From assembly GCA_902598275.1 (NCBI GenBank), contig CACKAZ010000009.1:14481-46480 (forward strand): 32,000 nt of DNA, given 5' to 3'. Positions 2,489 through 19,821 of the stretch are shown piece after piece. The translations under genes and the position numbers were made by a program. Origin of the DNA: an uncultured Alphaproteobacteria bacterium. GTDB lineage: Bacteria > Pseudomonadota > Alphaproteobacteria > HIMB59. The stretch's first letter is position 1. Each line of letters opens with the position of its first letter. Below the pieces are notes generated by a model. That model worked only from the letters and a program-made list of their open reading frames with translations, was not told where the DNA came from and searched no databases.

Positions 2489-2565
2489 GGCGGAGTAGCT
2501 CAGTTGGTTAGAGCGGTGGAATCATAATCCATGTGTCGGGGGTTCAAATCCCTCCTCCGCTACCA
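2489..2565 (+). tRNA. tRNA-Met (anticodon CAU), elongator type; lysidine-modified tRNA-Ile2 not excluded
   Basis: 77-nt cloverleaf read by eye. Acceptor GGCGGAG/CTCCGCT; D-arm GCTCAGTTGGTTAGAGC; anticodon stem-loop GTGGA-ATCATAA-TCCAT; T-arm GGGGG-TTCAAAT-CCCTC; encoded CCA. Confidence 0.88.
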
Positions 2566-2607
2566 ATTTAAGATTCAAAGATCAAATAAATAATATAATC
2601 TTTATTA

Positions 2608-3354
2608 ATGGAGTTTCAGACTATCACTCTAGCAGCAGGACTAGGCTCAAGATTAAAACATCTAACTAAACAATTACCTAAAACTCTTTTAAAAGTAAAA
2701 TCAAAATCTATAATTGGACATCAGTTAGACGCTTTTCATAAAAACAAAATTTTTAAAAATATTATTATTACAGGCCACTATTCAGAAAAGTTTCCTAAGA
2801 ACAATTGTGTATATATCAAAAATAAAAATTATAAAAAAAATAATATTCTAAATTCTTTATTTTATGCAAAAAGATTTATGAATACTAATACTATAATCTC
2901 ATATTCTGATATCCTATTTACACATAAAATAATATCAGAATTAATTATTGATGATAAGGATGTTACCTTAGTAGTTGATAAAGATTGGAGTAGAAACTAT
3001 CAAGATAGACAATTACATCCTATTCAGGAGGCCGAAAAAGTATGTTTTAAGTCTGACCAAATAATAAACATAGGAAAAAAAATATCATTCGTAGATGCTA
3101 ATGCAGAGTTTACAGGGCTCTTAAAGTTATCTAAAAGAGGATGCATAATATTTAAAAAGTATTTTGAATTGGCTAAACAAAAATTTTCCAATAAAAAATT
3201 TTATGAAGCAAATGATTTTAGCAAGGCATATATAACAGACTTTATTAAATATTTAATTGATAATGGTCTAACAATTAGCTACCTGAACATAAATAGTCCT
3301 TGGATGGAAATAGACACATTGGAGGATTATTTAAAATCTCAAAATTTCTTTTAG
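2608..3354 (+). CDS. LicC/PntC-like nucleotidyltransferase (candidate phosphonate or phospho-headgroup cytidylyltransferase)
   Basis: 248-aa ORF. N-terminal LAAGLGSRL...LPKTLL matches the G-x-G-x-R NTP-transferase loop. C-terminal WMEIDTLEDY is typical of LicC-type enzymes. It is the first gene of the plus-strand operon facing the phosphonate biosynthesis operon. Confidence 0.65.
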   Translation: MEFQTITLAAGLGSRLKHLTKQLPKTLLKVKSKSIIGHQLDAFHKNKIFKNIIITGHYSEKFPKNNCVYIKNKNYKKNNILNSLFYAKRFMNTNTIISYSDILFTHKIISELIIDDKDVTLVVDKDWSRNYQDRQLHPIQEAEKVCFKSDQIINIGKKISFVDANAEFTGLLKLSKRGCIIFKKYFELAKQKFSNKKFYEANDFSKAYITDFIKYLIDNGLTISYLNINSPWMEIDTLEDYLKSQNFF

Positions 3355-3361
3355 TAAATAA

Positions 3362-4882
3362 ATGTATTTAAAAATTAGTTTCTATATTACTAGCTTTTTT
3401 TTTACTTTTATTTATATATTTGAAGCATTTTACTTTAAAACTTATGGCATTTTCTCTAGTCTAAATGTCGGTAGATTTGTATTAAAAGATTTTTTAAGTG
3501 AATTTTCTTACATCAATAATTTAATTTCTTTTCTTTTTATATTTTCAATTTTATATTTCTTTCAAAAAAAATTGGGTCTTAAAATTAGAGACAACTTAAA
3601 AATTATAGATATTTTTTTTTTTACTTTATTTTTAATTTTTATAACAACTAATATTTTATCTCAGATACAATATCTAAAAGATATTTCTCTTTTACATGAT
3701 ATTTATAAGTTTATTTATTCAATTGTTAAAAATATTGTTATTTCTAAGTTATTACTTGTAATATTACCTTTATCTTTTTTTATAATTGCTCTTCAAAGAT
3801 TTAGTTTGCCTTTAGTTAAATTAAGAGAATTTTTTAGATATTTTATTATCTCTCTTGGTATTATCTTTATATTAGAGTCAATAATTTCTGTTATAAATCT
3901 TTATCCAAGATCCATTTATATTAATAATGATAATAATTTACATCAGGAAAAAAAAATAAATTCTAATACGGATGAACATAAAATTATATTAGTTGTATTT
4001 GATGAATGGGACTATCATGATACTTCAGATATCCTTAATACATTTCTAAGTAATTATGATAAAAAAAATTATTATTCTGGTTTTTTATCAAGTCGGTCAA
4101 CAAATACTTTTTGTTCAGTAATGCAGATACTTATGCCCGTTGATTTAGACACTAATTTATTTTGTATAATTACTAAAGATAACCAAGGAGTCCAAAATCA
4201 CAATTTAGAAATTTTTAATCAACCTAATTATTATAAAAATATTTTAAATAATTTTCATAATATTAATATTTATCATGACTACTATTTCCCTTATTGTAGA
4301 CTGGTATCATCTAATTCAAATAAGTGTTATGAAAATTCAATGAAAATAGAAAAAAAGAGTTTTTATTTTTTTACAGATAACTTGTTACAAGATTTTAAAA
4401 ATATTTTCAAATTATTCTATATTAAAACAATAGGAAAATTAATTCAAAAAGATTTAACATATAAATATTCTAATCCTGAGTTTAACTTAAACTCTAGAAA
4501 AACTCTCATAGACGATTTTTATCAAGATATTTCAAAAAAAGAAAATGGATTATTTTATTCTCACTTATTAATTCCACACATGCCTTATTTTTATGATGGC
4601 TTAAATTTCTCTAATTATGTTGGAGACTATCAAGGCAACACTATTTATTTGACTAATGTAATCAAAAATATTGAAAAATTAACTAATTTCAAAAATCAAA
4701 ATAACGTTACTTTAATTTTTACTTCAGACCATCATAATAGATACCCTGAAACTAAAAAAAAAGATGATAAAAACATCGTACCTATAATTATTTTTTCAAA
4801 AGATTTAAATAAAGATTTTAATATAAAAAGTCATTCTTCAATTAACACATTTATCAACAATTTTTCAAATATAATAAATTGA
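3362..4882 (+). CDS. membrane-anchored alkaline-phosphatase-superfamily (LtaS/EptA/sulfatase-like) transferase
   Basis: 506-aa ORF. Several N-terminal hydrophobic helices precede a soluble domain containing VVFDEWD (acidic metal site), SRSTNT (candidate Ser/Thr nucleophile) and TSDHH, which is the layout of LtaS/EptA-type enzymes. Confidence 0.5.
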   Translation: MYLKISFYITSFFFTFIYIFEAFYFKTYGIFSSLNVGRFVLKDFLSEFSYINNLISFLFIFSILYFFQKKLGLKIRDNLKIIDIFFFTLFLIFITTNILSQIQYLKDISLLHDIYKFIYSIVKNIVISKLLLVILPLSFFIIALQRFSLPLVKLREFFRYFIISLGIIFILESIISVINLYPRSIYINNDNNLHQEKKINSNTDEHKIILVVFDEWDYHDTSDILNTFLSNYDKKNYYSGFLSSRSTNTFCSVMQILMPVDLDTNLFCIITKDNQGVQNHNLEIFNQPNYYKNILNNFHNINIYHDYYFPYCRLVSSNSNKCYENSMKIEKKSFYFFTDNLLQDFKNIFKLFYIKTIGKLIQKDLTYKYSNPEFNLNSRKTLIDDFYQDISKKENGLFYSHLLIPHMPYFYDGLNFSNYVGDYQGNTIYLTNVIKNIEKLTNFKNQNNVTLIFTSDHHNRYPETKKKDDKNIVPIIIFSKDLNKDFNIKSHSSINTFINNFSNIIN

Positions 4883-5967
4883 ATAAAAATATTAAGATTA
4901 TAAATTTAGCACTGGGTTCTTATGAAGAATTTAATTTAGTTATTTACAACGAATCAAAAGAATACACTTTTATATTTGAGGATATCTGTAACCAAATTAA
5001 TTTGAAAAAATTTATATATTTATATTCAGATAAAGATGATTATTTAAACAAAAAATTATCTAGCATTCAATCTTGTAATATTGGAAATGGTATACTTAGA
5101 ACTATAATTTTAAACAACATTAAATCTAAAAAATTTCTTACAACCACTACTGATTTAAATAAGTATCAAATAAAAAAATCAAAATTCTGTAATAATTATT
5201 GTTATATATTTCACTCCTTGGTGAGTATCAATAAAGCTTATGAAGATAAGGCTTTTTATTCATATGATACTATCTTTGCACCAACTATTAACCACGCTAA
5301 TGAATTAAATAAATATAAGAATATGCATAATTTAAATATAAATATTTTAAAGGCTGGTTATCCATTAATAGACAAAATAAGTCAAATTAAATTTAAAAAT
5401 AATAACAATGATCAGATAAAGATTTTACTAGCCCCTTCTTGGGGTGATAATAATTTTTTTACTTTTGATTATGTAGAAATTCTAAAAGATATTCTTAAAG
5501 ATACTAAATATCAAATCACACTTAGACCACATCCTCATTATTATAGAAAAAATAAAAAAAAAATCTTAAAAAAATTAGAACAATTAAAAAAATTTGAAAA
5601 CTTTAAATTAAGTACAGAATATAATTTCTACGATTTAACTGAAAATGAAATATTAATTTCTGATATGTCAGGAATAACAATAGAATTTTTTTTACTCAAT
5701 AAATTAAAAATAATTTATTTAGATGACTCGTCAAAAGTTAAAAATAAAAACTTTGCCAGTATAGCCAGCATTACCTTAGAAGAAAGAATAAAAGAAAAAA
5801 TTGGTATTAAAGTAATTACGAATAATCTCAGTTCATTTCTAAAAGATTTTAATAGAAACGATTTATTGCTTGATAATCAAACAATAAATCAGACTATTAA
5901 TATAATTGGTTTATATAATTTCAAAAAATCTGCAAAATCAATTACTGATTATTTAGAAAATTATTAA
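4879..5967 (+). CDS. TagB/TagF-family CDP-alcohol phosphotransferase (CDP-glycerol glycerophosphotransferase-like)
   Basis: 362-aa ORF. Its TTG start overlaps the upstream stop (TTGA). LLAPSWGD, LRPHPHY and ILISDMSGITIEF correspond to the APTWR / HP / DYSS blocks of TagF-family enzymes. Confidence 0.6.
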   Translation: MNKNIKIINLALGSYEEFNLVIYNESKEYTFIFEDICNQINLKKFIYLYSDKDDYLNKKLSSIQSCNIGNGILRTIILNNIKSKKFLTTTTDLNKYQIKKSKFCNNYCYIFHSLVSINKAYEDKAFYSYDTIFAPTINHANELNKYKNMHNLNINILKAGYPLIDKISQIKFKNNNNDQIKILLAPSWGDNNFFTFDYVEILKDILKDTKYQITLRPHPHYYRKNKKKILKKLEQLKKFENFKLSTEYNFYDLTENEILISDMSGITIEFFLLNKLKIIYLDDSSKVKNKNFASIASITLEERIKEKIGIKVITNNLSSFLKDFNRNDLLLDNQTINQTINIIGLYNFKKSAKSITDYLENY

Positions 5968-5970
5968 ATT

Positions 5971-7095
5971 TTAATGCCATGATTTATAAATTATTTGCTT
6001 TATAATAGTCTTATTTACTGGTGCTATATTATTTAATGCTCTTTTTTTATCTAGCATTTGATCAATAAGGTTTTCTATATTTTTAAAAGTCTTTATCTTC
6101 TTTTTTACTTGAGATTTTACTTTTAAATTTTTAAGTATTATTTCTAATTTACTATCTAGACTTTTAATATTTAAATCATTTTCTAGTTCTATGAATAAAT
6201 TTTCTTTATGCGTTCTATTATATCTCATTACTTCTAGCATAGTAAAAGCGCATGCCATGCCATGATTTACAGAGTATTTAAGAGTTAATGGGTATGATAA
6301 TGAGTGGCATAATGCTGTCTTTGTAATATTAATTAAACAACCTGATAAAACACTACATTTAGATATATTTTTAAAAAATTTTTTCTCGTTACCCTCAAAA
6401 TAGCCAGAAAAGGCATTTAGTCCCATTTTGATAGCAATACTTGAATAAAATTTTGTTTTTCTAGTGGCATTTACGTTCCATATTGACTCAAATGACTGAT
6501 TTAAGGCATCAAGAGCAGAGGGTAAGAATATTTCTTTAGAGCTTAGAGAAGTTAAACTCGGATCCACAATGGCAATTTTTGGTAAGTTATTTACGCTATC
6601 ATAAGAGTATTTCTTTTTATTCTTCTTATCCCAAATTGTAGCAAATGATGTAGCCTCACTACCAGATCCACTAGTTGTTGGTAAAGCTATTATTTTTTTT
6701 GGATTAAACTTTTGTATGAGAGAATTTTTTTTAGTAAGAGCTTTTATATCAAATTCTTTTTTTCCGGAACATAACATAGCATTATAAATTTTAGTAAGAT
6801 CAATAATTGATCCACCACCTATAGCAATAAAATATCTAAAATTTTTATTGACTATTTGTTTATATATAATTTTTTTTTGGTATAAGCTGATTTCACTTGA
6901 AGGAATAATTACCTTATCTACATTTTCTAAATCAGTTAATGGTTTTAAAAATTTATCTTTTCTAATTTCATTAACACATCTTTTTGTACACACTAATAAA
7001 CATTTATAATTTTTTATATGATTAAAAATATTTTTTTTTTTATTTTTACCATAAATAATCTTAACGTTTGAAATATTTTTATAAGCAAATTTCAT
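5971..7095 (-). CDS. iron-containing alcohol dehydrogenase; by context phosphonoacetaldehyde reductase (forms 2-hydroxyethylphosphonate)
   Basis: 374-aa ORF with the Fe-ADH nucleotide motif AIGGGSIIDLTK and the His-rich metal region (LCHSLSYPL...HGMA). It is the last gene of the ppm-ppd operon, 8 nt after ppd. The family call is firm; the substrate is inferred from context. Confidence 0.7.
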   Translation of the reverse strand: MKFAYKNISNVKIIYGKNKKKNIFNHIKNYKCLLVCTKRCVNEIRKDKFLKPLTDLENVDKVIIPSSEISLYQKKIIYKQIVNKNFRYFIAIGGGSIIDLTKIYNAMLCSGKKEFDIKALTKKNSLIQKFNPKKIIALPTTSGSGSEATSFATIWDKKNKKKYSYDSVNNLPKIAIVDPSLTSLSSKEIFLPSALDALNQSFESIWNVNATRKTKFYSSIAIKMGLNAFSGYFEGNEKKFFKNISKCSVLSGCLINITKTALCHSLSYPLTLKYSVNHGMACAFTMLEVMRYNRTHKENLFIELENDLNIKSLDSKLEIILKNLKVKSQVKKKIKTFKNIENLIDQMLDKKRALNNIAPVNKTIIKQIIYKSWH

Positions 7096-7103
7096 ATAAT
7101 TGA

Positions 7104-8222
7104 TTAATCAAAATTTTTCATAAATAAACTTTTACTAACTTTCAAAGGGAGAGATGGCCTTAAGAGCTTTCCTGAACTTCCTTTTTTTGTGAGAACTTCT
7201 ATAAATACAGAGCTTTTAACTTTATTAAGATTTTTCAAAAAAAATTCTAATTTTTTTTTATTATCTATTCTTATTGCTTTTTTATACCCACATGCTTTTG
7301 CTATATTAGATAGTTTTAAAGATTTTGCAGCGTTTTCTTGTCCACCAACGGAATCATGAACACCATTATTTATAACAATATGAACTAAATTATTAATTTT
7401 AGATGTACCTATATTAGTTAATGAACCCATATGCATTATCATAGACCCGTCTCCATCAATACACAAAAACCTCTTTTTACTTCCAAGACACATACCAAGA
7501 GTTAGGCTAGAAGCATACCCCATAGCGCCTACATTAAGAAAATATCTTTGTTTAATAGTATTTTCAGTCTCAATATTAATTAGTTCTCTTGATGTATAGC
7601 CAGTTGTTGCAATAATTGGTAAATCTTTATTTACATATTTGATAATACTTTTAATAACTTCCTTTCTGCTCATCAATTTATAATCTTTTTTAATCCTATC
7701 TACTTTTTCTTTAACTAAAAATGAGTCCCTCTCAATTAAAAAAGCAACTGATTTTTTTTTATTTTGGTTTAATTCAAAACCTTTTTTAAATTTTAATTTA
7801 TTTTTATAACTATTTTTTTTTATAATAAAATATGGCATATCAATAATTTTAAGTAAATCTTCAGTCTTTTTTCCTTGAGGTCTATGTTGAGGTTCATCTT
7901 TTTTATTTTTGTCCCCTCTCCATCCAATTATAAATATCATAGGTATTTCATAGATATCTTTGTGAATTAATGAAAGCACAGGATTAATTATATTGCCCAA
8001 CCCAGCATTTTGTAAGTAGACAACTGGTGTCTTTTTAGTTGTTAAATAATATCCTGCGGCAATTCCTACTGCACTACCCTCATTAGATGCAATTAAATTT
8101 TGAAATTTGTTAATATCGACTAAATTTGAAAAATGTTTTAGAACTGAGTCAGGTACCCCAGTAAAAAAATTAATTTTATATTTATTAATTTCTTCGAAAA
8201 GAATATTCAAATTTTTATTCAT
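7104..8222 (-). CDS. ppd: phosphonopyruvate decarboxylase (ThDP-dependent)
   Basis: 372-aa ORF. N-terminal FFTGVPDS, and the ThDP motif GDGSMIMHMGSL...INNG. Its size and its position immediately downstream of PEP mutase fit Ppd/AepY. Confidence 0.85.
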   Translation of the reverse strand: MNKNLNILFEEINKYKINFFTGVPDSVLKHFSNLVDINKFQNLIASNEGSAVGIAAGYYLTTKKTPVVYLQNAGLGNIINPVLSLIHKDIYEIPMIFIIGWRGDKNKKDEPQHRPQGKKTEDLLKIIDMPYFIIKKNSYKNKLKFKKGFELNQNKKKSVAFLIERDSFLVKEKVDRIKKDYKLMSRKEVIKSIIKYVNKDLPIIATTGYTSRELINIETENTIKQRYFLNVGAMGYASSLTLGMCLGSKKRFLCIDGDGSMIMHMGSLTNIGTSKINNLVHIVINNGVHDSVGGQENAAKSLKLSNIAKACGYKKAIRIDNKKKLEFFLKNLNKVKSSVFIEVLTKKGSSGKLLRPSLPLKVSKSLFMKNFD

Positions 8223-8227
8223 TTAAT

Positions 8228-9523
8228 TTAGTTTATTAACTTAATAATTTTTTTTATTGAACTTATATTTTTATCAGCCTCATAAGCTCTACCATTCTTT
8301 AGAATTTGAGAAGCTGTTTCTTCCATGGCTTTGTGAGCAGATCTCAAAAGTTGATTAGCATAAATAACTATATTAGCACCACCAAAGAAAAGTTCCCTCT
8401 CTCTGGTAGAAGAATATGTAGATGGAACCACCATTACGATTGAGTCCTCACTAAACTTTCTAAATTTTTTTAGAAAATCTAAAATTTCTTTAGAATCCTT
8501 TTTTTTACTATGTATAAATATTCCATCTGCACCAGATTTAACATAATTTTTAGATCGTCGTATTGCGTCTTTCATACCGTTTCCTAGTATTAAGCTTTCA
8601 ATTCTTGCAAAAACCATAAAATCTTTTGAAATTCTCGAGTTACAGGCAACTTCAATTTTTTTTGAAAAATTTTTAACAGTATCTTGGAGTGATTTAGACT
8701 GATCAGCAAATAAAGAGTTTATTTTTAATCCAGTTTTATCCTCTAAAACTACTGCTGATACACCCGACTTTTCAAGAGATTTTACAAGATAGGGCAAGTG
8801 CTCAATTTTTCCACCATTATCGGCATCAAATATTATTGGTTTAGATGATATGTTTGTAATTTCATTTAAACCGTTAATTCTTATTGAATAATCTACAGAT
8901 TGATTATCTGGCATAGCCCTAATAGTGGAGTCTGTGAGACTAGAGGACCATAAAAGATCAAATGCTTTAGTTTTATTTTTTTCTTTTAATTTTGTGTTCT
9001 CAATAATATGAGCGCTCATTCCATTATGGGCCTCAATGCCAATCAAATTTTGTCTTAAGACAAGCATTCTTTTTAGTAACGACACTCTTGATGATATTGA
9101 AAGGTTTAAATCTATTTTATCTTTTATAAGTTTTCTTGAAATATTTGATGTGAATGGGACTTCAATAAGTTTGCCACCCCAAGATTTCATCTCATTAATG
9201 ACAAACTTTCTAACTTGAGATAGATTACCTTTTTTCCAATCATCACCATGCACAAAGTAATCAGGTTTTATCTTCTTTAATGTTTGTTTATAATCCCAGT
9301 CATCTTGCTTTATAATTTGACTAATTCCAGATAATTTAGATACTAAATTATATCTTTCATTGTAACTTAAAATTGGAAATTCTCTGTATTGACTGATGGC
9401 TTTGTCAGATAGTAATCCAATAATCACATCTCCATACTTTCTTGCATGTTTTATAATATTTAGGTGACCTGAATGAACTATATCAGACGCCAGAGGAACA
9501 TATGATATTTTTTTTAAAACCAT
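8228..9523 (-). CDS. ppm: cytidylyltransferase (HxGH, TagD-like) :: phosphoenolpyruvate phosphomutase fusion
   Basis: 431-aa ORF. Residues ~1-130 carry DIVHSGHLNII (HxGH) and TSNISRK, the cytidylyltransferase-like fold. The C-terminal ~290 aa carry the PEP-mutase-specific VVLEDKTGLKINS (EDKxxxxxNS) plus ARIES and GADGIFIHSKK. Confidence 0.88.
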   Translation of the reverse strand: MVLKKISYVPLASDIVHSGHLNIIKHARKYGDVIIGLLSDKAISQYREFPILSYNERYNLVSKLSGISQIIKQDDWDYKQTLKKIKPDYFVHGDDWKKGNLSQVRKFVINEMKSWGGKLIEVPFTSNISRKLIKDKIDLNLSISSRVSLLKRMLVLRQNLIGIEAHNGMSAHIIENTKLKEKNKTKAFDLLWSSSLTDSTIRAMPDNQSVDYSIRINGLNEITNISSKPIIFDADNGGKIEHLPYLVKSLEKSGVSAVVLEDKTGLKINSLFADQSKSLQDTVKNFSKKIEVACNSRISKDFMVFARIESLILGNGMKDAIRRSKNYVKSGADGIFIHSKKKDSKEILDFLKKFRKFSEDSIVMVVPSTYSSTRERELFFGGANIVIYANQLLRSAHKAMEETASQILKNGRAYEADKNISSIKKIIKLIN

Positions 9524-10812
9524 TGGCTAGTATCAGACTCTATTCTAAGAATATCTTTGGGTTTCATTTGTGATATTTGTATTTTAATATCACCAGATAT
9601 TTTATTATCAATTCTTAAGATAAGAAACTTACTACCAACTTTGGGAAAACTATGTTTTACAAAAGGTTTAATATAAATAGTCTCCATATAACTCATTTTA
9701 ATTTTTTTTGAATTGATAGAAATTGAAGAAGAGTCCACAAGTGCATAAATATATTGGTGTGATGAAATACTAAAAAATTTATTATTTTTTTTTACTACTT
9801 CTAATTCAAGACCTTTTGAGGAAGGAACATTTGGAGAAGATGCAAGAAAAAATAATTTGAAAATTTGACTTTTTAAATTTGGAAAGAAATATTTTTGATA
9901 ATTTATCTTCTTTAAAACAACAACTTCAGTTTCCTTTTTGACTGAAAGAATCTCTCTAATATTAACATTTAAAAAATCTGATATTTTTATCAAATCATTA
10001 ATACTGAAGTCTATTTTGCCCTGAATTTTATTATCATAATCCTTTATAGATACTCTCTCTCTGAGATTATCTTTGCTTAAAGACATATTGTCTAAAAAAT
10101 TTAATATTTGATTATGTGAATTAGAATAATTAGACACCTTCTTAAGGTAATTTTTATCTTTCAAGGAAGATAAATTTAATAATTCTTTTTGTGTTTCAAA
10201 GTTTATTTTATCTTCAAAAGTTACAGCTACTATGTAAGAAATTCCTTTCTTACTTCTTGTTGTAAATGAGTGAGGTACATAAGGTGGAATATAGCAACTA
10301 TCACCAGATTTCATTTTTGATAATGTTTTTTTTCCATTCTTTAAATAGTAAAAATTAACATCTCCAACAAAATATGTGAACTGATGGAGTAAGTGACCTT
10401 TGTTCCAGGCAACTAATTTATTATCTGGTTTATCATCTTTAGTATAGCATAGAGTTCTTATCCATTCTGGCTTATATGGAGCATTTCTTTCAGTAGCTGT
10501 ATCTTTGTATTCATAATAATCAAGACCATTACGCTGCATAAGTCGCGCTGATTTATTGCTAATATTATTCTTTATATAAATAAATTCTGAGTCATTGATT
10601 TGGGGGTTAATTAAATCAGAAATTTTAATTGGCCAAATCTTCGACATTGAATTTATAATTTCGAGTGTTATTGGTTTTTTGCCATTTAAAATTTTTTCAA
10701 ATTCTTTTTGAGATAAATTTAATTCTTTAGCAGCATCCTTGTCTCTTCTTTTAATATCGTTAAGTATCTGTTTGAGCCTAACGTTAGAAAATACGTTATT
10801 TTTTTTTGACAT
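9514..10812 (-). CDS. mpnS: 2-hydroxyethylphosphonate oxygenase of the HEPD/MpnS bicupin family; residue pattern favours methylphosphonate synthase
   Basis: 432-aa ORF built as a tandem [helical XRE-like domain + cupin] duplication (YIPPYVPHSF vs YIKPFVKHSF). The first cupin has H140-x3-Q144...H181, with F154 and I175. It overlaps the ppm start by 10 nt (ATGGTTTTAA). See finding 1. Confidence 0.65.
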   Translation of the reverse strand: MSKKNNVFSNVRLKQILNDIKRRDKDAAKELNLSQKEFEKILNGKKPITLEIINSMSKIWPIKISDLINPQINDSEFIYIKNNISNKSARLMQRNGLDYYEYKDTATERNAPYKPEWIRTLCYTKDDKPDNKLVAWNKGHLLHQFTYFVGDVNFYYLKNGKKTLSKMKSGDSCYIPPYVPHSFTTRSKKGISYIVAVTFEDKINFETQKELLNLSSLKDKNYLKKVSNYSNSHNQILNFLDNMSLSKDNLRERVSIKDYDNKIQGKIDFSINDLIKISDFLNVNIREILSVKKETEVVVLKKINYQKYFFPNLKSQIFKLFFLASSPNVPSSKGLELEVVKKNNKFFSISSHQYIYALVDSSSISINSKKIKMSYMETIYIKPFVKHSFPKVGSKFLILRIDNKISGDIKIQISQMKPKDILRIESDTSQWF

Positions 10813-11026
10813 TCTTTTTGTTCAAATTTTTTTTGAAAATTTTATTATAAATATTGATTATTTTATGTTTAATTACAATTAATGAAGCTATGCCAGATGC
10901 TATCAAAACACCAATCATAGAAAAAAGTCCTCCTGGTTCTATATATGCAAATGCATTTTTTGAAAAAACACAACCCAAAGACAAAATGAGTAATAAATTT
11001 TTAAAAACTATTATAATTTTAAACAT
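10796..11026 (-). CDS. small hydrophobic/polybasic membrane protein (76 aa; alternative 40-aa product from internal ATG at 10918)
   Basis: The ORF opens the phosphonate operon and overlaps the mpnS start by 17 nt. It has a signal-like N-terminus (LLLILSLGCVFSKNAFA), a second hydrophobic helix (LFSMIGVLIASGIASLIVI) and a Lys-rich tail. I recognise no family. Confidence 0.4.
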   Translation of the reverse strand: MFKIIIVFKNLLLILSLGCVFSKNAFAYIEPGGLFSMIGVLIASGIASLIVIKHKIINIYNKIFKKNLNKKNVKKK

Positions 11027-11033
11027 GCTATTA

Positions 11034-11058
11034 GAATTTCACATATATATTGAAATTC
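11034..11058. repeat. inverted repeat GAATTTCA-N9-TGAAATTC (operator or 5'-UTR hairpin candidate)
   Basis: A perfect 8-bp inverted repeat read directly from the sequence. It lies 8 nt upstream of the ATG at 11026 (minus strand), inside the 62-nt gap between that ORF and tRNA-fMet. Confidence 0.5.
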
Positions 11059-11065
11059 AACAATA

Positions 11066-11071
11066 ATTATA
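11066..11071 (-). promoter_or_regulatory. candidate -10 box (TATAAT on the minus strand) for the phosphonate operon
   Basis: Plus-strand ATTATA at 11066-11071 is TATAAT on the minus strand, ~40 nt upstream of ATG 11026. No convincing -35 is present, because that region would fall in the tRNA-fMet 5' end. Confidence 0.25.
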
Positions 11072-11088
11072 TATCTTTCGTCTCATGG

Positions 11089-11165
<77 letters not shown>

Positions 11166-11222
11166 ATATTTTATCTCTAATTGTTTTAATATATTTTCAC
11201 TGTTAAATTATAATTAAGCTAA

Positions 11223-13034
11223 ATGTTTTTTTTTCCAATATTGTTATCTCAGCTATTGCTAGTAATTTTTTTTTTATATAGTTTTTCAAAAAAATTTTTA
11301 ATAATTTTTGATTTTAAAAATATCATTTTACTTTTCATTCCTTTAATTTTAATAATTAGTTCAGGTTTTCGTTTTTATGGATATTCAATTTATGATGATA
11401 TATTATTAATTTTTTTAACCTTATATATACTTGTAAATTATTCAAAAATAAAAATTAAATTTTCCTTAAATGATAAATTAATTATTACTCTTTTATTAAT
11501 ACTATTGCTGCATTCATTTTTTGGTCTATACACTTATAAAGAAATAAAAATTATTATTTATCCTGCGTACTTTGTTGGATTAATTTCACTATTGTGCTTT
11601 CTTAAAATTAACAAAATTAATTATGAGGAAAAAAAAGCACTTTTATATTTTGATATCGTAGTCATTTATTTTCTTATACTAACAGTTTCTACTCTTTACC
11701 TAGATTTCACTCCAATTTTATTTGAAGATTTTATAAGTTACGTCAATAATGATAGATGTCTGGGTCTTTATGATGAAGCATTATCTAGACATAAGCATTT
11801 TCATCAATGCTTGCAAAATGTATTAACATCTGGATCAACATTATCTATTTTACCAATAATATTTGGCTACCTCCTTATTTATAGTAATTTTCATAAACAA
11901 AAAATAAGAACAATCATTCTAATTTTTTTATTTATTTCTTATACTGATATTACTAATAGCGAGGCAGGGCACTTAATAATAATTTTCAGTAGTATATTAA
12001 TTTTGATATTAAAAAATTTTAAATTCCAATTTATTGTTATTAACCTTATATCAATATTTTTGTTTTTATTATTCAGTTCAGCGAATCTATATATCAAACA
12101 TAAAGTTTTATCTGAGAATCTACAGATCAAACATAGTGTTTTAAATGATAATAAATTACTAGAAAACGTCTTTGATAAACAAAGTAAAAGATTTAATTAC
12201 TCAAATAATTACTTTAATCACATCAATAAAAAGACACTCAATGATGTAAATCATATGCTTGCGGATAAAAATTATATTGATCAATTCAAAATTAATAATT
12301 ATGGCGACCCTGAGCTTTTAGAAATAATAACAATCATAGAGAAAAATATAAAACTTCTTGATTCATATAATAGAGATATTCTCAATTTAATGTACCAAGA
12401 TGTAAATGAGGATAGATCAAAATACCCCATATCAAATTATGAATATAAATATCTTGACCTAAAAAAATATTTTGGTTCAGGTGATACTATAAGAATTTCA
12501 ACAGGTTCTATAGGCTCCAGATTAAGGGATATTATTATATTACTTGACACTAAAATCACTAATACTGAAAAATTATTCGGGAATGGCATTTATTCATCAA
12601 GATATAAACTTCCTAAACAAATTGAATTCTCAGATATGAATTTATCTCTTTTCATTGGTAAAGAAATAAATGATTATGGTGTTGGGTATTCATTAAAAAA
12701 AATTTATAGCCAAGGTCATAAAATTCTAACCTTCGGTGAGAATATGGTAGTTTACAGTAATGCATACGATCAAATACCCACAATGATTTTTTTTTCAAAA
12801 TTTATTTATGATTTTGGGTTAATTGCTTTTGCTATTTTCCTTTTCATAATCTTTATTAATATTTTTAAAGTTTACAAAGAATATATTTTTAAAGATTTTA
12901 TTTTTTTAACTTATATTTTATTATTAATATGTTCTTGGTCATTTTTAACAGATTTAACAAATAATCTTGTATTTTACGCCTTACTATTTTATTCATATAT
13001 TATTAAATTTTTCATAAAAAATAAACTTAGTTGA
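11223..13034 (+). CDS. polytopic membrane protein, possibly Wzy/O-antigen-ligase-like polymerase with a large extracytoplasmic loop
   Basis: 603-aa ORF with ~9 hydrophobic helices in residues 1-290, a ~230-aa hydrophilic insert, then 2-3 C-terminal helices. Weak resemblance to Wzy_C blocks (GSRLRDI...FGNGIYSS). The function is a guess from topology and context. Confidence 0.35.
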   Translation: MFFFPILLSQLLLVIFFLYSFSKKFLIIFDFKNIILLFIPLILIISSGFRFYGYSIYDDILLIFLTLYILVNYSKIKIKFSLNDKLIITLLLILLLHSFFGLYTYKEIKIIIYPAYFVGLISLLCFLKINKINYEEKKALLYFDIVVIYFLILTVSTLYLDFTPILFEDFISYVNNDRCLGLYDEALSRHKHFHQCLQNVLTSGSTLSILPIIFGYLLIYSNFHKQKIRTIILIFLFISYTDITNSEAGHLIIIFSSILILILKNFKFQFIVINLISIFLFLLFSSANLYIKHKVLSENLQIKHSVLNDNKLLENVFDKQSKRFNYSNNYFNHINKKTLNDVNHMLADKNYIDQFKINNYGDPELLEIITIIEKNIKLLDSYNRDILNLMYQDVNEDRSKYPISNYEYKYLDLKKYFGSGDTIRISTGSIGSRLRDIIILLDTKITNTEKLFGNGIYSSRYKLPKQIEFSDMNLSLFIGKEINDYGVGYSLKKIYSQGHKILTFGENMVVYSNAYDQIPTMIFFSKFIYDFGLIAFAIFLFIIFINIFKVYKEYIFKDFIFLTYILLLICSWSFLTDLTNNLVFYALLFYSYIIKFFIKNKLS

Positions 13035-13945
13035 TGAAAACATTTTATGTTCATGTAGGGTTACCAAAGGCTTTTAGCACCTCAATACAAAACTATATTT
13101 TTAAAGTTGAAAATCAATTTAAAGACTTTCTTTTTATAAATGATACTTTTGTTTCAAATGAAGTGTCTAAATATTATAAGTCACTCAAAAATAGTATTTA
13201 CGGTTATGGCGGAGTAGCTATTTATGATTATAAAAAACTTAATAAAATTGAGATTCAAAATTTTAAAGAAAAAATAAATAAAATTGCTTACAATAAAATT
13301 ATAATATCTGATGAGTCACTATTTGGTAATCCATATACTGATTATAATGACAGACAAAATATAATTAAAAATATCAAATCTTTATTCGATGGAGAGATAA
13401 AAATTTTGATTTCTTTAAGAAATCAAAAAAAATGGTCTAAATCATTTTTTAATACTTCTATTCAACAGGGTACAAGCAAAAGTTATAAAAAATTTATTGA
13501 TAAAGCTGGTCACCTCTCAATTAATTTAAAAGAGATGAATTTATCAAATCACATTAAGGATTTTAGTATTAATTTTGGTAAAGAAAATACTACAGTTACT
13601 TTTTGCGAAAAACAGATAGAAGAATTTAAAAATGATATAGATAATTTTTTTGGTTTTAAAAATAGTGAAATTCAATTTCCACGAAAAAATATCTCTTTTA
13701 ATAAACATTATCACACAGGAAGATTAATTATTAACAAGCTCATTAATCAAAAAATTTGTCAATTTTTCAATAATTTTAGGATTATATATTATATAAGTGT
13801 TTTTTTAGGCTATTTTATTGATTTATTAAAATTATATAAAGAGGATTACTCCATTCCTAATCAGACTGCTAATCAACTAAATGATTATAATAAACATCTT
13901 TTTAAAGACTTAGATTCTAAGGTATCAAAAAACTATATATTTTAG
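13034..13945 (+). CDS. sulfotransferase-like protein
   Basis: ~303 aa from ATG 13034 (TGATG overlap with the upstream stop; the track begins at TTG 13031). HVGLPKAFSTSIQ resembles the 5'-PSB loop (PKxGTT). ISLRNQKKWSKSFF resembles the 3'-PB motif (RNPxDRxxS). Confidence 0.4.
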   Translation: MKTFYVHVGLPKAFSTSIQNYIFKVENQFKDFLFINDTFVSNEVSKYYKSLKNSIYGYGGVAIYDYKKLNKIEIQNFKEKINKIAYNKIIISDESLFGNPYTDYNDRQNIIKNIKSLFDGEIKILISLRNQKKWSKSFFNTSIQQGTSKSYKKFIDKAGHLSINLKEMNLSNHIKDFSINFGKENTTVTFCEKQIEEFKNDIDNFFGFKNSEIQFPRKNISFNKHYHTGRLIINKLINQKICQFFNNFRIIYYISVFLGYFIDLLKLYKEDYSIPNQTANQLNDYNKHLFKDLDSKVSKNYIF

Positions 13946-13994
13946 ATCTATCAAAAATATCAAAAAATAAGGATATTTTATCATTATATAGCAT

Positions 13995-14026
13995 TTGACA
14001 AAAGCACAAGAAAGTGTAGTTATACT
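13995..14026 (+). promoter_or_regulatory. candidate rrn promoter (perfect -35 TTGACA; weak/ambiguous -10)
   Basis: TTGACA at 13995-14000 is preceded by a very A/T-rich UP-like tract. Possible -10 boxes are AGTTAT (17-nt spacer, preceded by TGT) or TATACT (20-nt spacer). It lies ~230 nt upstream of 16S. Confidence 0.4.
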
Positions 14027-14066
14027 TCTACAAAAATTACGAGTTACAATGCCATTTATTGTGCAT

Positions 14067-14079
14067 TAGTATCTCTTGC
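14067..14079 (+). promoter_or_regulatory. boxA-like antitermination element in the rrn leader
   Basis: TGCTCTTTATTAA matches the E. coli rrn boxA TGCTCTTTAACAA at 11 of 13 positions. Confidence 0.55.
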
Positions 14080-14105
14080 TCTTTATTAATTGTTAATATG
14101 AAATG

Positions 14106-14117
14106 AATAGACGGTGG
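14106..14117 (+). other. 5' half of the 16S-flanking processing stem (pairs with 15766-15777)
   Basis: AATAGACGGTGG at 14106-14117 is the exact reverse complement of CCACCGTCTATT at 15766-15777. The two bracket the 16S gene like an RNase III processing stem. Confidence 0.7.
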
Positions 14118-14228
14118 GTTTATACAACGTCGAATATCGGTTAAGCTTTAACTAGTTAATAATTATAGCTCGGTATTTGTCGTATAACCTACGTCAATTT
14201 AAAACTTTGTTTTTATGAGTAGGTAATT

Positions 14229-19056: not shown

Positions 19057-19821
19057 ATGGTTTCAATTAATTCTAAACAGAGAGCTAACGAGACAGAAAA
19101 AGAATACTCAAAAAGTATTGAAGATTATTTATTTGAGCATAATGGAAAAAAACTTGAGCAATTAAATGTTGATTGTTTTCCAAACTTTACCACTACAAAT
19201 TTAATAAGAAAATTATTTGTAAGATATGAACTATACAGAAAAACTTTTAAAATTCATGGTGATATCTTCGAGTGTGGAGTAGGTTATGGTCCAGGTTTTT
19301 TTTCTTGGCTGCATTTGAAAAATATTTTTGAACCATATAATCACCTCAGAAAAATAGTCGGTTTTGACACATTTGAGGGCTTTGAAAAGATATCGGATCA
19401 AGATAAATCAAGTTTACATAATGATGACCTAATAGAAAAAGGTCTCAAAGCAGATGTTTTTAATAAGCTTTTAAATTTATTAAGTATGAAATCAAAATTA
19501 TATCCTAATCCCCACTTAGAACAGGCCTTTTTAATTAAAGGCGATATAATACAAACACTTGATCAATATCTTGAAAAAAATTCCCAAACAATTGTCTCAT
19601 TATTATTCCTAGATTTTGATCTTTATGAACCTACTCTCCATGTTTTAAATAGAGTCGTTCCTTTGATGTCAAAGGGAGCAATTATAGCTTTTGATCAGAT
19701 TAACCATGATTTTTGGCCAGGTGAGTCTGTCGCAGTAAAAGATTATTTTGGAAAAAATTTTGGAGATATTGAAATTAAAAGGTTAGATATATCAGGGACA
19801 ACTTCATATATAGAAATTTAA
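19057..19821 (+). CDS. TylF/MycF-family SAM-dependent (sugar) O-methyltransferase
   Basis: 254-aa ORF. GDIFECGVGYG, VGFDTFEGF and LLFLDFDLYEPT...LMSKGAIIAFDQ match the TylF-family blocks (G.ivEcGvwrG, DsFeG, lD.DlYeST...GG.i..DDY). Confidence 0.7.
   Translation: MVSINSKQRANETEKEYSKSIEDYLFEHNGKKLEQLNVDCFPNFTTTNLIRKLFVRYELYRKTFKIHGDIFECGVGYGPGFFSWLHLKNIFEPYNHLRKIVGFDTFEGFEKISDQDKSSLHNDDLIEKGLKADVFNKLLNLLSMKSKLYPNPHLEQAFLIKGDIIQTLDQYLEKNSQTIVSLLFLDFDLYEPTLHVLNRVVPLMSKGAIIAFDQINHDFWPGESVAVKDYFGKNFGDIEIKRLDISGTTSYIEI

Follow-up and report, generated by a model that had tools for sequence, protein, structure and literature searches.

Small phosphorus-containing head groups are activated with CTP for surface decoration in both the Pnt (PntC) and the Lic (LicC/LicD) systems, and the steps after PntC have been described as unresolved (PMC6697681). 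Comparable decoration is encountered in the O-methyl phosphoramidate (MeOPN) pathway of Campylobacter jejuni (Cj1415-Cj1422), the transferases of which act on the capsule, and in the methylphosphonate (MPn) cluster of Nitrosopumilus maritimus, the presumed product of which is exopolysaccharide esterified with MPn (PMC9381506). Among the enzymes that transfer such groups, LtaS, EptA, EptC, and MCR-1 share an N-terminal transmembrane (TM) bundle, an outer domain with an alkaline phosphatase (AP) fold, a threonine nucleophile, and an acid-Thr-Asp-His metal site. TagF, TagB, TarL, and the TagF-like capsule polymerases (PF04464) share a GT-B fold, two conserved histidines, and the motifs AP(T/S)(F/W), (R/K)xHP, and SD(Y/W)S. 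This paper describes a gene cassette in a 32,000-nucleotide stretch of DNA (the window) from an uncultured alphaproteobacterium of the HIMB59 lineage (contig CACKAZ010000009.1, positions 14,481 to 46,480), in which a phosphonate pathway is combined with an LtaS/EptA-like membrane enzyme of 506 amino acids (aa), a TagF-like enzyme of 362 aa, and a membrane peptide of 76 aa. Judged from its genes, the cassette probably decorates an extracytoplasmic glycan with MPn, and possibly also with 2-hydroxyethylphosphonate (HEP), via a relay of two enzymes. Homology supports the synthesis of MPn, the families, catalytic residues, and opposite sidedness of the two enzymes, their gene linkage, and an exchange of donor genes among relatives.

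The original prediction had proposed the two proteins as phosphonyl-transferases next to a phosphonate pathway. Both open reading frames are real (3362-4882, plus strand, 506 aa, ATG start; 4879-5967, plus strand, 362 aa, TTG start; overlap of 4 nt), and all motifs quoted for them are present: VVFDEWD at residue 211, STNT at 246, and TSDHH at 454 of the 506-aa protein, and LLAPSWGD at 183, RPHPHY at 216, and SDMSG at 261 of the 362-aa protein. They belong to a cassette of 8.5 kb that is flanked on both sides by tRNA-Met(CAT) genes, in a low-GC genome bin of 1.17 Mb that is 79% complete. The 16S rRNA gene of the bin agrees with Alphaproteobacteria, and its 16S, 23S, and 5S genes are joined in one operon. 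The nucleotidyltransferase, 506-aa, and 362-aa genes are on the plus strand, and the genes of the peptide, mpnS, pepM, ppd, and pdh converge on them from the minus strand. The ten parts are:

2489..2565, plus strand: tRNA-Met(CAT), marking the left end of the cassette (ARAGORN); behind the tRNA-Met genes here, relatives hold different cassettes
2608..3354, plus strand: PntC/LicC-like cytidylyltransferase, 248 aa (PF00483; nearest structures 6pd1 and 1jyk)
3362..4882, plus strand: putative membrane AP-superfamily (LtaS/EptA-like) transferase, about five TM helices, with D214, T249, H406, D456, and H457 (PF00884 in homologues, Foldseek)
4879..5967, plus strand: soluble TagF-family GT-B phosphotransferase, predicted to release CMP, with H112, R216, H218, D262, and S264 (PF04464 in homologues)
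5971..7095, minus strand: Fe-alcohol dehydrogenase, assigned as phosphonoacetaldehyde reductase (Pdh/PhpC-like; PF00465; best NCBIfam match TIGR03405, below cut-off)
7104..8222, minus strand: phosphonopyruvate decarboxylase, Ppd (TIGR03297, above cut-off)
8228..9523, minus strand: PEP mutase, PepM, with an N-terminal PF01467 cytidylyltransferase domain of the Fom1 type (TIGR02320 above cut-off; EDK-x5-NS motif)
9514..10812, minus strand: methylphosphonate synthase, MpnS (alignments to 6b9s and 6b9r, active-site residues)
10796..11026, minus strand: 76-aa YIEPG membrane microprotein overlapping the mpnS start (signal-like helix, AFA cleavage-like site, YIEPG, TM helix, basic tail)
11089..11165, plus strand: a further tRNA-Met(CAT), closing the cassette on the right (ARAGORN)

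The same ten-part layout is intact in the Arctic contigs L096 and L097.

MPn synthesis by PepM, Ppd, Pdh, and MpnS is well supported by homology, which bears out the claimed phosphonate pathway. PepM and Ppd exceed the curated NCBIfam cut-offs, and PepM carries EDK-x5-NS, the motif of PEP mutases (10.1101/2020.11.04.368217). The oxygenase has a His-Gln-His triad and is nearer to MPnS (6b9s, E 1.7e-75) than to the HEP dioxygenase HEPD (6b9r, E 2e-53); together with its Phe and Ile, of the MPnS type, at two positions occupied by Tyr and Gly in HEPD, this led to rejection of a HEPD identity. These positions are reportedly diagnostic for the two enzymes, as put forward by Born et al. in 2017. Because the oxygenase carries the MPnS residues, the likely donor in the window is CMP-MPn, and CMP-HEP is a possible one. 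In loci compared below, a LicC-type nucleotidyltransferase accompanies mpnS/hepD in 11 of 11 cases, and four HEP-only loci (three of them short) have only the cytidylyltransferase domain fused to PepM, for which Fom1 provides a precedent (PMC6697681). This suggests that the LicC-type enzyme makes CMP-MPn and the PepM-fused domain CMP-HEP. Fusions of MpnS with a LicC-type nucleotidyltransferase (634-780 aa) were seen in L030, L041, L051, L082, and L085, mainly from Chloroflexota.

By itself, the 362-aa protein gives no Glyphos_transf match in Pfam and exceeds no family cut-off in Pfam or NCBIfam; PF04464 is matched by 21 of its 23 homologues, including one that is 81% identical. Its predicted structure (mean predicted local distance difference test, pLDDT, 85) best matches TagF, TarL, and capsule polymerases (Foldseek to TagF, E 2e-11). 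In VIA, TagF scores Z ~20.5-20.9 (rmsd 4-5 Å over ~320 residues) and UDP-GlcNAc 2-epimerases are almost level (Z 19-20), so the fold alone is not decisive. Residues H112, W188, R216, H218, and S264 are invariant across 53 sequences of the TagF subfamily, the roles of such conserved residues being taken from the catalytic mechanism of TagF (PMC10901376), with H112 equated to TagF H444 via motif position and not by superposition. Moreover, the subfamily profile aligns to the motifs of the TarL C-domain (E 8.5e-6). Homologue matches, fold, and invariant residues thus sustain the proposed family, and since hydropathy analysis gives no TM segment, the protein is taken as cytoplasmic. Homology makes it a soluble member of the TagF family in which both catalytic histidines are retained. 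It is ~14% identical to TagF, TagB, and TarL, and differs from them as a single-domain protein that lacks the N-terminal domain of the polymerases; its type forms a separate subfamily linked to the microprotein, YidC paralogues, and non-polyol donors, and this gene context points to donors other than CDP-glycerol or CDP-ribitol. A role as teichoic-acid polymerase was rejected in view of the missing N-terminal domain, the Gram-negative host, and the donor context. The ratios of nonsynonymous to synonymous substitution (dN/dS), measured against a relative, are 0.15 and 0.30 for the two transferase genes, which are both under purifying selection.

The 506-aa protein by itself does not match Sulfatase in Pfam (Metalloenzyme only, sub-threshold, E 0.002) and nothing exceeds the NCBIfam cut-offs; 14 of its 17 homologues match PF00884. 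The anticipated profile placement in the Glyphos_transf and Sulfatase families therefore failed for either protein alone and succeeded through the homologues. T249, H406, D456, and H457 are invariant among the 17 homologues, and D214 is present in at least 90% of them; the arrangement matches the LtaS active site (E263, T307, H422, D481, H482; PMC4192460). Hydropathy analysis gives four clear TM segments and an N-terminal helix, a fifth TM helix being derived from the predicted model. Because of these segments, the basic loops at 68-80 and 144-159, and the invariant cysteine pair C312/C322, the catalytic domain is placed outside, in agreement with the predicted LtaS/EptA-like topology. Foldseek ranks LtaS, EptC, PbgA, and MCR-1 first (E 5e-6 to 1e-4) for a low-confidence model (pLDDT 62). 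The protein thus appears to be a membrane enzyme with an outward LtaS/EptA-type threonine and metal site. It is ~12% identical to LtaS, EptA, EptC, and MCR-1, and an ordinary phospholipid donor is not implied, as the donor source varies with the neighbouring genes. The AP superfamily includes phosphonate monoester hydrolases, so phosphonate chemistry fits the outer enzyme. A formylglycine sulfatase was rejected, as Thr249 stands in a TNTFCS context and the C/S-x-P-x-R motif occurs in none of the 17 homologues. The protein has few relatives, and a profile search for further ones gave nothing new. One distant homologue (L094, 1604-11575) is found together with a TagF-like gene, the peptide, an enolase, an APH-type kinase, and a gene resembling adenosine phosphosulfate (APS) kinase, possibly representing another donor type.

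In the peptide, a signal-like helix with alanine at -1 (in 95% of 58 matches) is followed by the pattern Y-x-D/E-P, after which a TM helix leads into a basic tail. The 1.17-Mb genome has two copies of this pattern, one of them in the cassette, where dN/dS of the peptide gene is 0.23. When the profile was built without its first four columns, Tyr1 and Asp3 were found in 49 of 49 matches, which are mostly in-sample and include three new ones missed by the motif search. The window peptide has no Ser/Thr at positions 6 and 8, and these residues are therefore not the carrier. Some family members are without a cleavable signal, so that a free N-terminal amine seems unnecessary. The peptide is fused N-terminally to the TagF-like proteins P0006, P0118, and P0120, and YidC is fused to other TagF-like proteins. 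Searching the Atlas with the peptide returned only unnamed clusters (0.85), and a predicted complex between the mature peptide and the TagF-like enzyme scored 0.01, a value not taken as evidence.

The recurrence of this module was assessed in 80 genome loci of the TagF subfamily, being the best matches to a central alignment and ~25% identical to the window protein; kin among them are not independent, and 33 loci have full flanks (at least 19 kb each). Of the 80 loci, 49 have an AP-superfamily gene, 56 the peptide, and 25 a YidC paralogue; the respective numbers for the full-flank loci are 25, 27, and 13. Pairing of the two transferase classes had been regarded as unusual, which these counts contradict. 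The co-occurrence spans many phyla, and outer enzymes from several unrelated AP subfamilies occupy the same slot. The donor genes belong to a phosphonate pathway in 30 loci (including 11 with mpnS/hepD and 15 with a 2-aminoethylphosphonate transaminase), to a phosphoramidate pathway in 18, and to a lone methyltransferase in six, and are other or truncated in 26. A tree of the quick type was made of the TagF subfamily; as the window clade has a long branch in it, no weight is put on where this clade falls. The donor label clusters on this tree and yet changes often, with 13 changes for phosphonate, at least eight of them forced by well-supported branches. In two genomes from the same genus as the window, phosphoramidate genes accompany the module and there is no match to PepM; the neighbours are a Gln kinase, a CDP-amidate hydrolase, and a cytidylyltransferase, as in the C. 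jejuni MeOPN pathway. Within this genus, pepM is found in two of 71 genomes and strong TagF-subfamily matches in four of 71, many of the genomes being incomplete. The best explanation is that the two transferases and the peptide constitute a donor-tolerant kit for CMP-activated phosphoryl-type groups, in which the neighbouring donor genes set what is attached. The enzymes had been proposed as phosphonyl-transferases; a dedication to phosphonate does not stand, as the module is also accompanied by donor genes of the phosphoramidate or methyltransferase type, and an allele of 98% identity occurs with either donor. A marine thaumarchaeote (L044, 17010-18401) has an mpnS-like gene with the HEPD-type Tyr and Gly near two TagF-like genes and the peptide.

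Donor exchange is visible among Arctic relatives (L001-L005 and L107-L111, of the allele cluster of L096/L097), in which the peptide, the outer enzyme, and the TagF-like gene are retained and mpnS-pepM-ppd-pdh are lost. What is left of mpnS (27 codons) and of pdh (23 codons) surrounds a gene for a foreign 212-aa methyltransferase, the insert having 40% GC against 20-25% in its neighbours. MPn-type and methyltransferase-type alleles are 98.1% identical in TagF, 98.5% in the peptide, and 92.5% in the outer enzyme, and no TagF substitution is common to both methyltransferase-type alleles against both MPn-type alleles. The cytidylyltransferase of the methyltransferase type has a damaged glycine motif and, in most contigs, two one-base deletions, or is gone; its decay after the swap ties this enzyme to the phosphonate donor. 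Six unrelated genomes have a member of the swapped-in methyltransferase family in the donor slot and no nucleotidyltransferase nearby. Across metagenomes, a TagF-like gene is near the family in 15 of 80 loci, and among hand-picked neighbours four show a LicD fusion and six an APS-kinase-like domain that is fused or adjacent. The latter is reminiscent of Cj1415, which we take to be the APS-kinase-like counterpart in the MeOPN pathway. Such LicD- and APS-kinase-like-fused members are located in glycan loci (L121, L186, L187, L189; L175, L184, L196). L174, in which a truncated dehydrogenase is left behind, looks like a second, independent replacement. A PDB search with the methyltransferase alignment gave generic class I enzymes only; from gene context and many invariant basic residues, the enzyme is predicted to methylate a cytidine nucleotide, yielding a methyl-phosphate donor.

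In the proposed relay, PepM, Ppd, Pdh, and MpnS would make MPn, the PntC-like cytidylyltransferase would convert it to CMP-MPn, and the cytoplasmic TagF-like enzyme would release CMP and load the group on the hydroxyl of a membrane-bound carrier, which could be a lipid or the invariant tyrosine of the YIEPG peptide. The loaded carrier would reach the outer face with the aid of the peptide and a YidC-type protein, where the outer enzyme, by the chemistry of LtaS, would take the group on Thr249 and hand it to a glycan hydroxyl. The acceptor is most plausibly a surface polysaccharide encoded past the rRNA operon, where glycan biosynthesis genes are located. The earlier idea of a relay holds up and is probable in this form, with two enzymes on opposite membrane sides and conserved catalytic residues in both. 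The accompanying proposal of two acceptors or a lipid-linked intermediate had omitted the peptide, and a peptide-assisted relay is at least as likely; the probability of the relay is split roughly evenly between the peptide tyrosine and a lipid as carrier. Several observations weigh against the relay. The 506-aa enzyme is divergent, and a TagF-like gene adjoins only one of the four distant homologues checked; the cassette has no YidC paralogue, the genome showing the housekeeping YidC only; comparison of the two methyltransferase-type alleles gives a dN/dS of 0.77 for the outer enzyme, which may reflect relaxed selection after the swap; and seven Nitrosopumilaceae mpnS clusters have soluble AP-family genes and neither a TagF-like gene nor the peptide. 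The main difficulty for a peptide carrier is that cleavage of the signal would leave the conserved tyrosine outside, on the membrane side opposite to the TagF-like enzyme.

With the peptide as covalent carrier, the TagF-like enzyme would load the phosphonyl group on Tyr1 of the mature peptide and the outer enzyme would take it off, while YidC moves the short N-terminus across the membrane. The invariance of Tyr1 and Asp3, the exclusion of the Ser/Thr alternatives, the members without cleavable signal, and the precedent of the DltX tyrosine as acyl shuttle (PMC12148441) favour this, but loading before insertion would be single-use and very costly for the peptide-TagF fusions, a dedicated YidC is absent from the cassette, and no peptide was detected in 24 of the 80 loci, many of these truncated; it is a tentative and rather unlikely option. 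Alternatively, the carrier could be diacylglycerol or polyprenol, with the peptide as membrane anchor or scaffold only, which corresponds to the lipid-linked intermediate of the original prediction. LtaS and EptA use phospholipid donors (PMC4192460), TagF-like enzymes work on lipid-bound substrates (PMC10901376), and the fusions would keep the enzyme at the cytoplasmic membrane face. This option, possible although somewhat doubtful, leaves the invariant outer-side Tyr-x-Asp unexplained, and the cassette encodes neither a flippase nor an extra CDP-alcohol phosphatidyltransferase, both PF01066 genes of the genome being elsewhere. Distinctly unlikely is a pair of independent reactions, in which the TagF-like enzyme directly decorates a lipid-linked glycan in the cytoplasm and the outer enzyme serves another purpose, either the addition of a conventional phospholipid head group at some other site or trimming of the ester by phosphodiesterase or phosphonate monoesterase activity. 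For characterised TagF-family enzymes, a polyol or a glycan is the direct acceptor (PMC10901376), hydrolases occur in the AP superfamily, and eight of the 33 full-flank loci have no AP gene; however, the 506-aa and 362-aa genes are translationally coupled, the four-part module with peptide and YidC is conserved across phyla and donor types, and unrelated AP subfamilies fill the same outer slot. Similarly improbable is that the methyltransferase-type transferases are recent relics of a deleted pathway, which would make the swap uninformative on donor tolerance. The swap is recent (synonymous divergence of TagF, dS, 0.04) and the outer-enzyme ratio given above fits decay, but the only broken gene is that of the cytidylyltransferase, and the peptide, the methyltransferase, the outer enzyme, and TagF (dN/dS 0.29 for the methyltransferase-type pair of alleles) are intact; the recurrence of the methyltransferase family in the donor slot of unrelated genomes, and its LicD fusions or TagF-like neighbours elsewhere, also argue against relics. 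The boldest combination is speculative and unlikely as a whole. In it, the tyrosine of the microprotein would shuttle phosphonyl or phosphoryl groups from the TagF-like loader to the LtaS-like outer enzyme, as the phosphorus equivalent of DltX, and a single methyltransferase, producing O-methyl-CDP, would take the place of four genes in marine strains, so that their surface changes from methylphosphonate (P-CH3), a precursor of methane, to methyl phosphate (P-O-CH3) with the attachment enzymes retained.

The relay through the TagF-like and outer enzymes would follow Lic/Pnt and MeOPN logic on its donor side and LtaS/EptA logic on its acceptor side. In contrast to Pnt and Lic, no LicD was found in the window genome (a bin 79% complete), and transfer is seemingly divided between the cytoplasmic TagF-like and the outer LtaS-like enzyme. 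The C. jejuni pathway differs in that Campylobacter uses its own transferases and has no TagF-like, peptide, or LtaS-like relay. The Dlt system (DltB-DltX-DltD), in which a membrane microprotein with an invariant tyrosine joins cytoplasm-fed loading to an outer transferase (PMC12148441), is an analogy only; there is no homology, its chemistry is acyl and not phosphoryl, and its loading enzyme spans the membrane. The N. maritimus cluster (ppm, ppd, pdh, mpnS, a nucleotidyltransferase, and two 'sulfatases') shares with the window the biosynthetic genes, the PntC-like nucleotidyltransferase, and AP genes beside mpnS. However, two soluble AP genes flank mpnS in that type, whereas the window has one membrane AP enzyme, the TagF-like gene, and the peptide. 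One of the seven Nitrosopumilaceae clusters is taken as that of N. maritimus SCM1, its MpnS segment being identical to 6b9s; its AP genes have no N-terminal membrane bundle, its cluster has no TagF-like gene or peptide, and a module of TagF-like, peptide, and membrane AP genes is located 460 kb away, beside phosphoramidate genes. Among 151 Nitrosopumilaceae genomes, eight have an mpnS-like gene and three the TagF subfamily. As these clusters are without the module, MPn can be attached without it; a universal MPn attachment route was therefore rejected, and the module is one route among at least two. The thaumarchaeal soluble AP proteins may represent a second, TagF-free route that uses the CMP donor directly. 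The thaumarchaeal mpnS clusters (L200, 8689-12672; L202-L207) encode two or three AP-family proteins without N-terminal membrane bundle, and a similar 371-aa AP-family gene stands beside phosphoramidate genes in L201 (8072-9187).

No paper describing the TagF/peptide/YidC/LtaS module was found in the literature searched, in which coverage of subscription journals was limited; the individual enzyme families are familiar, and their combination with a microprotein and YidC appears undescribed. Once phosphonates have been activated with CTP, the way in which they are joined to glycans is an open question (PMC6697681), for which the cassette is a compact candidate. Aerobic methane production draws on the MPn esters that marine polysaccharides carry (PMC9381506). 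The near-identical alleles with two donors amount to a natural experiment. Since the module is widespread, reconstituting it once would account for decoration with phosphonate, with phosphoramidate, and possibly with methyl phosphate in many phyla.

The region from cinA to the 16S rRNA gene (window 2489-14200; L001, L004, L005, L096) is an array of cassettes with a tRNA-Met(CAT) before each. The window has two tRNA-Met copies and L001-L004 have three, and cassette order varies among relatives, which suggests recombination at these copies. A promoter scan was at chance level (61 observed versus 68 expected). Beyond the cassette, 11223-13034 encodes a 603-aa multi-pass membrane protein without family match, 36% identical to the product of a 657-aa gene on the opposite side of the module in relatives (L001, 2591-4564); it might polymerise or ligate the acceptor glycan. 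The adjacent 304-aa protein (13031-13945) has, by eye, a sulfotransferase-like N-terminal P-loop, and nothing in Pfam exceeds the cut-off. Immediately 3' of the 5S rRNA gene is a 254-aa methyltransferase-like gene (19057-19821), of which a 21-codon remnant precedes the outer enzyme in L005, and relatives of which adjoin members of the swapped-in methyltransferase family in L164, L167, L169, and L192.

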